This document shows, piece after piece, positions 16,043 to 19,000 of a DNA stretch of 64,000 bases. Below the pieces are notes generated by a model. It was not told the origin of the DNA. It saw nothing but the letters and a program-made list of their open reading frames with translations, and ran no database searches. Source of the stretch: Acidimicrobiales bacterium (GTDB lineage: Bacteria; Actinomycetota; Actinomycetes; Mycobacteriales; QHCE01); the NCBI GenBank assembly GCA_003243955.1, contig QHCE01000057.1, positions 1,991 to 65,990 on the forward strand, read 5' to 3'. Numbering within the stretch: position 1 is the first letter of the stretch; every line of letters begins with the position of its first letter. The translations under genes and the position numbers were made by a program.

Positions 16043-19000
16043 TTAGCCGCTCCGCAGTGTGGCGTGAATCTCCTGTAACGGCCGCACTCCCAGCTCTCCG
16101 CGGATTTGGGCCTCAATACCCATCACCGCCGCCGCGGCACCCTGCACCGTGGTCAGGCAAGGCACCCGAGCAAGCACCGCGGCGCCGCGAATCTCATAGC
16201 CGTCGACGCGAGGGCCTGCCGTGCCATACGGGGTGTTGATTACCAGATCGATCTCGCCGGCTTCAATCAGCGCCACGACGTCGGGGTCGCCGCCAACCAT
16301 GCGCTCCGAATGCTTCCCCACCAAGGCGACCTGGATGCCGTGGCGTTGCAGGACGATCGCAGTTCCGGCAGTAGCCAAGATCTCGAAGCCGAGATCGGCG
16401 AGGCGTTTTATCGGAAATACCATCGCGCGCTTGTCATGGTTAGCCACTGAGACGAATACCCGACCCTTGGTAGGGAGCGGACCATAAGCCGCGGTCTGGC
16501 TTTTGGCGAACGCACGGCCGAACGCACTATCCAAACCCATCACCTCACCGGTGGACTTCATCTCCGGGCCAAGCAGACTGTCAACGCCCTTGCCCTCGGT
16601 GGTACGGAAGCGCTCAAACGGCAGCACTGCCTCCTTCACCGCAATCGGCGTTCCTACCGGTGCGTCCCCACCATCGCCAACAGCTAGAAGTAGCCCTTCC
16701 GCACGCAACTGCGCAATAGTGGCACCAAGCATCACGCGCGCCGCCGCCTTGGCAAGCGGGATGCCAGTTGCCTTAGCCACAAATGGCACTGTTCGGCTCG
16801 CCCTCGGATTGGCCTCCAGCACGTAGAGCACATCGTCCTTGAGCGCATACTGCACATTGAGTAGCCCGCGCACACCTAAATGCGCAGCGATGGCTTCGGT
16901 GTGGCTACGAGCTCGGGCGATGTCGCCCACGCCCAGCGTGATCGGCGGAAGCGCACAGGACGAATCGCCAGAGTGGATACCCGCTTCTTCGATGTGCTCC
17001 ATTACGCCACCGAGGTACACCTGCTCGCCGTCGCAGAGCGCGTCCACATCAATCTCGATCGCGTCCTCAAGGAACCGATCCACCAACACCGGATGCTCCG
17101 GACTGACCTGAGTGGCGCGCGCAATGTAGTCGGCGAGCGCATCGGAGTCGTAGACGATCTCCATCCCGCGACCTCCGAGCACGTAGGAGGGCCGCACCAA
17201 TACCGGATAACCAATCTCGCACGCGATTGCCGAGGCCTCATCAAACGACGTAGCCAGCCCATAGGCGGGGGCAGGTAGCCCGGCCTGAGCTAGGAGCGCA
17301 CCGAACGAGCCGCGGTTCTCCGCGGCATCGATCGCCTCCGGCGAGGTGCCCACAATGGGCAGGCCAGCATCCCGCAACCGCTTAGCAAGACTGAGTGGAG
17401 TCTGCCCGCCCAACTGCACAATGACGCCAACCACACCGGGGCCTCCGGCGGCTTGGCCGCTTTCGTGCTCGGCGAGATACACCTCCAAGACGTCTTCAAA
17501 AGTGAGCGGCTCGAAGTACAGTCGATCGGCGGTGTCATAGTCGGTGGAGACAGTCTCGGGATTGCAGTTCATCATCACCGTCTCGTACCTACTTGACGTT
17601 TTCCCGGAAAACGTCCCTTTCGGGGCCGTTTCTACGACGTTTTCCCGGAAAACGTCCCCGCTCTTGGTGGCCTGCAGAGCCATCGCGGCATGCACACACG
17701 AGTAGTCGAACTCGATACCCTGGCCGATCCGGTTGGGTCCAGAGCCCAGGATCAGCACCTTTGGCGCGGCGCTGGGCAGCACCTCGGTCTCACCCCGAAA
17801 ACCTTCGGCGCCACCCTCGTAGGCCGAGTAGTAATACGGCGTGGCCGCGGCAAACTCCGCGGCGCACGTATCGACCGTCTTATACACCGGGCGCACACCC
17901 ATGCGGTGGCGGAGTCGCCGCACAGCGTCTTCATCGGGCAGCTCTGGTCGAAGAGCCGCCAGCTGCTGGTCGGAGCAGCCCAACCGCTTCGCCCGCCGCA
18001 GCAGGACGCCATCAAGCACCGGAGCGGCAGCGATCTCTGCGCGCAGCTCAACCAACCGCGCGATCTGGTCGATGAACCACGGGTCGACGCTGGAGGCTGC
18101 CGCCACGTCGGCTACCGAAGCCCCGTAACGCAACGCTCGTTCCGCCGTATAAATCCGGCCGTCATGCGGAGTCCGCAGCGCTTGAAGCGCCCCCTCACGC
18201 GCCGAATCAATGGACGTTTTCAGGGAAAACGTCGCTTCAGGGGTGGTTTTGGTGACGTTTTCGGGGAAAACGTCGCTGGAGACGGTATCGGGATCGGGTG
18301 TGGTCCAGAATCCGCTGGCAGTGGTTTCGGTGGACCGGAGCGCCTTCTGCAGTGCCTCGGCAAACGATCGACCGAAGCTCATCGCCTCGCCGACGGACTT
18401 CATGGTCGTAGTGAGTTCGGCGTCAGCTCCGGGGAACTTCTCGAACGCGAACCGCGGTACTTTCACCACTACGTAGTCCAACGCGGGCTCAAAGCTTGCC
18501 GGAGTGCTGCCGGTGATGTCGTTGTCGATCTCGTCAAGGGTATAGCCGATCGCGAGCTTGGTCGCGATTTTGGCAATAGGGAAACCGGTGGCTTTAGACG
18601 CCAACGCCGAAGACCGCGACACGCGTGGATTCATCTCGATCACCACAAGCTGGCCAGTTTCGGGATGCACCGCGAACTGAACGTTGCAGCCTCCAGTGTC
18701 CACACCCACCGCACGCAGCACAGCGATGCCGACGTCGCGCATCGTCTGATACTCCCGATCGGTGAGCGTCATCGCTGGTGCCACCGTGACAGAGTCACCG
18801 GTGTGCACGCCCATCGGGTCGATATTTTCAATAGAGCAGACCACGACCACGTTGTCGCATGCGTCCCGCATCAGCTCCAGCTCGTATTCCTTCCAACCCA
18901 GCACGCTCTCCTCGATCAGTACCTGGGCGGTAGGACTAACCGCGAGCCCGGCGGTAACAATCGCGCGCAGCTGCTTCTCGTCGCGGGCCAGACCCGAGCC

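Follow-up and report, generated by a model that had tools for sequence, protein, structure and literature searches.

The present study deals with a 64,000-nucleotide stretch of contig QHCE01000057.1 (assembly GCA_003243955.1), called the window here, and with a palindromic repeat that is translated in frame at two places inside its carB gene, which codes for the large subunit of carbamoyl-phosphate synthase. carB lies on the minus strand at 16043-19531 and, judged by its open reading frame (ORF) and translation, codes for a protein of 1162 aa counted from an MSKRK start; the ORF is still open beyond this start, up to 19597. It is the final gene of a pyrR-pyrB-pyrC-carA-carB block, the neighbours having been recognised by their Pfam matches. 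The window CarB was aligned over its full length to E. coli CarB (1bxr_A) and was compared with its 120 closest homologues. Most of these have about 1100-1135 aa as compared to 1162 aa in the window, and the alignment located the surplus length at two repeat-bearing sites, referred to here as site A and site B. This confirmed, for both sites, the original prediction, made from the letters of this DNA alone, that the protein exceeds the usual size by about 50 aa because of two inserts.

The repeat unit is 62 bp long and consists of two perfect 21-bp palindromes (arms), which start 41 bp apart and are separated by a 20-nt spacer. The exact arm, GACGTTTTC-N3-GAAAACGTC, was found four times in the window, at 17595-17615, 17636-17656, 18213-18233 and 18254-18274, that is, exactly where two double-palindrome elements with arms 41 bp apart had been predicted. 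When up to 3 mismatches were allowed the number of arm matches in the window rose to 6, against 0.01 expected from shuffled sequence; the two weaker matches lie beyond carB, at 28371 and 28487. The copy at site B (17594-17656, minus strand) has the arm GACGTTTTCCCGGAAAACGTC at 17595-17615, a perfect palindrome with 10-bp stems, the spacer at 17616-17635 and a second arm of the same sequence at 17636-17656. The 20-nt length of the spacer is fixed throughout the family, and its sequence is weakly conserved. The site B insert occupies CarB residues 626-646, and the 62-bp doublet together with one further base makes 21 codons, therefore the frame is not shifted. The copy at site A (18213-18274, minus strand; arms 18213-18233 and 18254-18274) corresponds to residues 420-440. 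Both copies are read in the same codon phase, DVFxENV...TFSxKTS, and their spacers share 11 of 20 bases as compared to about 6.2 for shuffled spacers. Thus the predicted insert translations with the adjoining CarB motifs, the common codon phase and the relatedness of the two spacers were all borne out.

Depending on the phase, an arm reads DVFxENV, TFSxKTS or RFxxKR, and the 41-bp register changes the phase from one arm to the next. It had been proposed that the element is stop-free on both strands. This is correct for the phase used in carB (DVFxENV-7 aa-TFSxKTS), which is free of stops on either strand in all but a few copies, and the antisense ORFs named along with that proposal are present. 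It does not hold for the other two phases, in which several copies contain stops (e.g. a TGA arising from the loop), including the carB-sense strand of both window copies. The doublets fold, as RNA and as DNA, into two hairpins or one nested hairpin (z -4.4 to -5.5 versus shuffles), in agreement with the expected pair of hairpins, and a lone arm as DNA has a folding energy of -7.2 kcal/mol. No Rfam family was matched by the doublets, and scans for promoters and terminators detected neither a T-tract terminator nor a sigma-70-like promoter signal in them. There is no conserved base flanking the arms.

It could be argued that inserts of this kind are produced by assembly or binning, as the source is metagenome-assembled and palindromes are able to cause misassembly. 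The window corresponds to positions 62340-126339 of DAITIK010000001.1 in GCA_036837295.1, a metagenome-assembled genome, and an identical 1162-aa CarB is on record as PZS08875.1 / MGI8646931.1 from a 71,420-bp contig. The same inserts are found in GCA_050999955.1, a separate assembly whose contig is 1 base off the window across 23,489 (99.996% over 23.5 kb). Since identical inserts occur in three assemblies, they are not an artefact of a single one. In addition, the carB frame runs uninterrupted through both inserts and diverged versions of them are present in relatives, so that an artefact has practically no probability left.

Both sites lie where the enzyme appears able to accommodate extra residues. 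Site A aligns with residues ~409-437 of E. coli CarB (1bxr), a linker at the start of the oligomerisation domain. In the E. coli protein the position of site B is between R590/E591 and D592/G593, in a helix-strand loop of the second ATP-grasp half. The site A linker varies from 15 to 31 aa across homologues that have no repeat, and at site B 56 of the 120 homologues have a loop of 5 aa, while in many others it runs to 13-36 aa. When the structure was modelled from 120 sequences (pLDDT 67, pTM 0.71), both inserts came out as coil of low confidence, the one at site B lying after helix 611-620 and before strand 650-655; other segments of the model are also poor, and hence this placement is consistent with flexible linkers but not specific. 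The model was used for loop location only, and a 12-sequence model (pLDDT 51.6) was set aside. Both carB sites are surface linkers whose length is already variable among actinobacterial CarB proteins, and mapping on the E. coli enzyme puts them in the same places as the original prediction had done. As a separate observation, the loop matching window CarB 620-649 is hypervariable in many genera, mostly Micromonosporaceae (P0013-P0117), with Gly/Ala/Ser-rich low-complexity inserts of 13-36 residues.

Comparison with close relatives revealed filled as well as empty sites. In ungapped columns, P0002 CarB is 98% identical to that of the window, P0003 88%, P0010 86% and P0004 85%; the DNA of P0003 is locus L037 and that of P0004 is locus L038, from bin JTS-RE384. 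The site A copy (18213) is missing from P0002, P0003 and P0010; P0002 and the window differ there by a 30-aa indel, and P0004/L038 has a decayed copy at the same junction. The site B copy (17595) is common to the window and P0002, where the second arm is altered: six residues, SGKTSG (SGKTSGSGKTST), which correspond to the right half of that arm, have been duplicated. Both loops of P0002 are thus fast-changing while the rest of CarB is 98% identical, and the duplication and the 30-aa indel are signs of instability. Site B is empty in P0003, and by codon alignment to L037 the window gains exactly 21 codons (63 nt) with no direct repeat of at least 2 bases at the junctions. The site B insert of P0004 contains no palindrome whatsoever. 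Among the 120 homologues, peptides derived from the palindrome occur in the window, P0002 and P0004 only. The empty sites that an insertion should leave in close relatives are therefore present (P0002, P0003 and P0010 for site A, P0003 for site B). In a neighbour-joining tree the window and P0002 form a pair that is joined with a pair of P0004 and P0003, P0010 being outside. On this grouping the site A copy was either gained twice at the one position or gained once and lost twice.

Further copies of the repeat were expected if it is a mobile element, and they were found between genes of the window as well as in bins of related genomes. A doublet profile detected four copies in the 64-kb window and no others: the two in carB, and two decayed doublets at 28330-28391 (internal indels; nhmmer E = 1.4e-4) and 28446-28507 (E = 1.9e-9). 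Both of the latter lie in the gap 28197-28545 between divergent flavin-monooxygenase-like and P450 genes. Three of the window copies can be aligned in register (family D1). An exact-arm scan with one genome per species returned 36 loci, of which 9 come from the uncultured Mycobacteriales bins LS6_sbin.2, bin.58 and JTS-RE384 and 1 from Nocardia. The other 26 are lone palindromes from unrelated phyla, about the number that would arise by chance according to the analyst's estimate. A recognisable second arm stands at exactly 41 bp in 7 of the 9 bin loci, and the eighth, L009, has a decayed partner in register. Two more members, L047 and L087, came from metagenome Ga0136627. The pattern used for the metagenome scan was the inner half-arms, GAAAACGTC-N20-GACGTTTTC, which is itself an inverted repeat, and consequently most of its matches are unrelated long hairpins, L047 and L087 being the family members. 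The doublets known in total number about 15, all of them with the 41-bp register and a 20-nt spacer. No arm was found in a scan of phage contigs. The doublet peptide was found in none of 1.84 billion cluster representatives, the four matches being unrelated tandem-repeat proteins, a result that is expected if insert-bearing proteins are not representatives.

The searches also brought up sequences that do not belong to the family. A half-arm in metK at 9616-9634 (TTTCCCGGAAAACGCC) was rejected as a chance look-alike, for it is the conserved MetK motif GGGAFSGKD and not a copy. The half-arm scan yielded three kinds of by-catch. A long-hairpin family unrelated to the repeat, AGATGGAAAACGTC-N20-GACGTTTTCCATCT, is recurrent in metagenome contigs of ~70% G+C, its loci including L039, L045, L058, L059, L089-L091, L093, L105, L113, L116, L117, L119, L125 and L130-L132. 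Another hairpin family, beginning GTGTGACGAAAACGTCACA, was seen in contigs of ~33% G+C (L046, L048, L065, L110, L122), and one beginning TCCGGAAAACGTCCAC in TARA contigs (L056, L066, L073, L092, L107, L128).

The spacers indicate what is being copied. Their mean pairwise identity over all doublets is 7.67/20 as compared to 6.23 +/- 0.17 after shuffling, and the spacers of L015 and L047, which are unrelated loci from different sources, have 15 of 20 bases in common. Related spacers at unrelated loci mean that the whole doublet is the unit copied. This bears on the idea that doublets form locally, by hairpin-primed repair or slippage at fragile sites, and are not copied from elsewhere. Such a process would agree with the lack of target duplication and of a transposase, and a slippage product is indeed seen in P0002. 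However, unrelated loci and different genomes show the same 18 specified bases, 3-nt centre and 20-nt spacing, and local events would not converge on one sequence; we give this idea very little chance.

The contexts of the copies outside carB are diverse. The nuoM gene of LS6_sbin.2 (L015) contains a doublet, in frame and in the phase used in carB. It falls in a loop of NuoM, where homology to solved chains halts before the insert and resumes after it (query 562-600 versus chain 457-495). Together with the two carB copies this makes three clear in-frame cases in core genes. Other copies are situated just upstream of a HemL-homologous region (L031), of a CtaB-like ORF (L047) and of a DUF6328 ORF (L010). 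In L087 a HAD-type ORF has a copy as its C-terminal tail. A lone arm is found at the 3' end of a BioD-like ORF (L018), and no convincing gene spans the remaining copies. This spread of positions at gene ends, between genes and in genes matches what has been reported for REP sequences (PMC3733652).

Paired palindromes invite another explanation, already offered for a dimeric protein along with the original prediction, namely that the arms are sites for a dimeric or tetrameric DNA-binding protein, whose dyads, separated by about four turns, share one face of the helix, and that the carB copies are functional as roadblocks or operators. The perfect dyad symmetry and a strict 41-bp register kept while the spacer drifts are what such sites would show, and four arms stand in the divergent flavin-monooxygenase/P450 promoter gap. 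The decayed copies keep their GGGAAAACGTC halves intact while the opposite halves are eroded, and the carB site A arms are conserved against saturated synonymous divergence. On the other hand, the carB copies are missing in the closest relatives and so are not conserved regulatory sites, and the orthologous copy of P0002 has a decayed arm. Copies are scattered over 5' ends, 3' ends and the interior of unrelated genes (nuoM, hemL, ctaB-like, HAD-type, DUF6328), no regulator gene is linked to any of them and no promoter-like sites overlie the arms. The arms may bind a protein, but for the carB copies, which are lineage-specific insertions within a coding region, the operator explanation is unsupported and we consider it improbable.

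Taken together, we regard it as likely that the two carB segments stem from a small palindromic repeat of the REP-doublet kind (REPIN/RPE-like), non-autonomous and tolerated in permissive loops of the protein. The repeat forms a family of copies; it is copied as a whole doublet, is present or absent between close genomes, leaves no target duplication, and undergoes decay and slippage. The extra copies, the empty sites, the permissive linkers, the folding and the nuoM case all support the earlier suggestion that selfish hairpin repeats colonise ORFs in frame in the manner of Rickettsia palindromic elements. In carB the copies would be neutral or slightly costly passengers that are translated with the enzyme. 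New copies would arise by copying of the entire doublet, and point mutation, together with slippage or deletion driven by the hairpins, would later erode them. The likeliest mobiliser would be a hairpin-recognising single-strand transposase of the IS200/IS605 (RAYT) type, a route which the absence of target-site duplication fits, although its gene was not seen among the window ORFs scanned or in 188 kb of family loci. Other candidates, namely a CRISPR-like mini-array, a recombinase core site, an integron attC site and known actinobacterial operators, were considered and set aside as a poor fit in repeat size, centre length or sequence.

It should be noted that several results weigh against a REP-like repeat of this sort. 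No transposase domain was detected among the ~50 window ORFs scanned with Pfam, and a single IS200-type TnpA query had no match in the 188 kb of family loci. The catalogued REP superfamilies are defined by an unpaired GTAG or CGTC tag, which the arms do not carry: there is no GTAG, and the CGTC that ends the arm pairs with GACG at its other end. The count of about 15 doublets comes mostly from loci selected by an exact arm. The two intergenic copies of the window stand in a divergent promoter region, a less usual location for REP sequences (PMC3733652). Lastly, the arms are far better conserved than the spacers. At site A the window and L038 differ at 5 of 36 stem positions as compared to 9 of 20 spacer positions (Fisher p = 0.02), a comparison of small numbers in which the loci were mostly chosen by an exact arm.

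This last point deserves attention. Between the window and L038, 62% of the four-fold degenerate carB sites are different, which amounts to saturation. The arms are nevertheless largely intact, and this is not predicted by simple neutral decay of one ancient insertion. The L038 site A copy has lost its hairpin potential (z = +0.7) and still has GGGAAAACGTC intact in both arms, and the decayed copy at 28446 likewise keeps its GGGAAAACGTC halves. It is possible that independent insertions took place at the same junction, in which case the perfect site A copy of the window would post-date the split from P0002. It is also possible that copies are renewed at existing sites, or that part of the arm is under selection. 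The decayed site B arm of P0002 argues against a strong general constraint.

One way to account for the conserved arms is to consider the inserts as old, domesticated parts of CarB or its mRNA, whose hairpins were selected (for translation pausing between domains or control of mRNA decay) and were lost in relatives. Site A is filled in two non-sister lineages, and parsimony does not distinguish a single gain followed by two losses from two gains. In the right half-arms the window and L038 have the same bases at third codon positions, despite the 62% four-fold difference, and both inserts are situated at domain or sub-domain junctions. However, the L038 copy folds no better than shuffles, hence the hairpin is not what is kept there. 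Furthermore, inserts are missing in 117 of the 120 homologues, the P0004 insert at site B is without a palindrome, and the repeat also occurs outside genes and in unrelated genes. Domestication of the inserts is therefore doubtful, and we would give it about the same small weight as paired operators. A somewhat better, though still minor, chance is given to the doublet being more than passive, such that the arms or the GGGAAAACGTC direct repeat at 41 bp are actively maintained or renewed, either through site-preferring re-insertion at the carB linker or through a selected DNA or RNA role in core genes. If true, Actinobacteria would have their first described case of a REPIN-like replicator that persists vertically, or of a domesticated palindrome pair, and it would work without the GTAG/RAYT signature.

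Some other features of the window were observed. Directly downstream of carB and before gmk, 15341-16002 holds a PIN-domain gene with a small upstream ORF, likely a toxin-antitoxin pair; in the relative L038, too, carB is followed by a PIN gene. In the PyrC-like protein (20812-22131) the dihydroorotase-like match spans 186 protein residues as compared to 136 Pfam profile positions, which suggests an extra segment of ~50 residues; by the doublet profile the palindromic repeat is not in this segment. Between BioF-like and BioA-like genes, 31648-31719 contains four near-perfect tandem copies of the 18-nt unit GTCATACCGTCTCTCAAG. The BioA-like ORF (31715-33142, minus strand) has 5.5 tandem copies of the 15-nt unit ACAGAACTTGGTGGC at its 5' end (33039-33121), ahead of the aminotransferase domain; these would be either a pentapeptide-repeat N-terminal extension or a 5' leader. 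A cluster of four tRNA genes is located at 35226-35808.

If the carB segments are REP-like repeats, as we think likely, translated palindromic repeats would be extended to Actinobacteria, a phylum missing from the REP catalogue of PMC3733652. The family is compact and tractable, as its palindromes are perfect, its size is fixed at 63 bp and a single phase is open, and the filled and empty relatives for carB and nuoM provide a natural test of insertion tolerance in a large multi-domain enzyme. The carB repeat could also reveal how such repeats move without a visible RAYT-type signature. For annotation it serves as a warning that extra loops of core enzymes in genome bins can be repeat-derived and not functional. 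The original prediction knew of no such behaviour in an actinobacterial core gene. This stands in so far as no actinobacterial case of in-frame palindromic repeats was found in the literature searched, the coverage of which is incomplete. The behaviour as such is known well beyond Rickettsia, in eight phyla (PMC3733652). In that work, in-frame REP singles and dimers were described inside ORFs of several phyla (Di Nocera et al. 2013, PMC3733652), covering Proteobacteria, Cyanobacteria, Chloroflexi, the PVC group, Chlorobi, Bacteroidetes, Spirochaetes and Thermotogae, with no Actinobacteria. Dimers or groups, which encode 20-30 aa, make up more than half of the ORF-internal REP inserts, and two inserts are present in some genes, as in uvrA of O. 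terrae and Thioalkalivibrio (PMC3733652). REP dimer spacers are 20-100 bp long and some are alike in length and not in sequence (PMC3733652).

The carB repeat resembles REP and REPIN sequences in several respects. Short palindromes are paired at a set distance and can fold into one larger hairpin (PMC3116915, PMC3733652), and the 21-bp arm with its 9-10 bp stems is within the ~20-40 bp of the stem-loop unit. The spacers are similar in length and variable in sequence, and there is no target duplication. The copies are mostly at gene ends or intergenic, with some in-frame dimers encoding 20-30 aa. As the arms are self-complementary, inverted and direct orientation of a pair are indistinguishable. 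The arms differ from REP sequences in being perfect 9-3-9 (or 10-1-10) palindromes with no unpaired GTAG/CGTC tag and no CCA tail, and their stem and loop sizes are unlike those of the CGTC families (8-9 bp stems after the tag, 4-5 nt loops). On account of the missing tag and the different stem and loop sizes the carB repeat is placed in neither REP superfamily. Further differences are the actinobacterial host, a RAYT gene that was not seen and the small known copy number. With repeats of the MITE and MIRU kind it has in common that they are small, non-coding, made of inverted repeats and polymorphic between filled and empty sites, some being fused to ORFs (PMC3184786). It differs from MITEs as neither terminal inverted repeats of the insertion sequence (IS) type, nor a target-site duplication, nor a parent IS was seen, and from MIRUs as these are tandem 40-100 bp units in operon spacers and have another structure. 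Rickettsia palindromic elements are credited, in passages of PMC3733652 and PMC3184786 that refer to Ogata et al. 2000, as the first in-frame palindromic repeats described. The carB repeat has no sequence relationship with them; its unit is 62-63 bp with two identical perfect palindromes, and its host has the gene content of a large genome and ~62% G+C, and is not an obligate intracellular alphaproteobacterium. What the two have in common is their behaviour, for in both cases the repeats are in-frame inserts in conserved functional proteins and are co-translated with them at places which the fold tolerates, here two in carB and one in nuoM.

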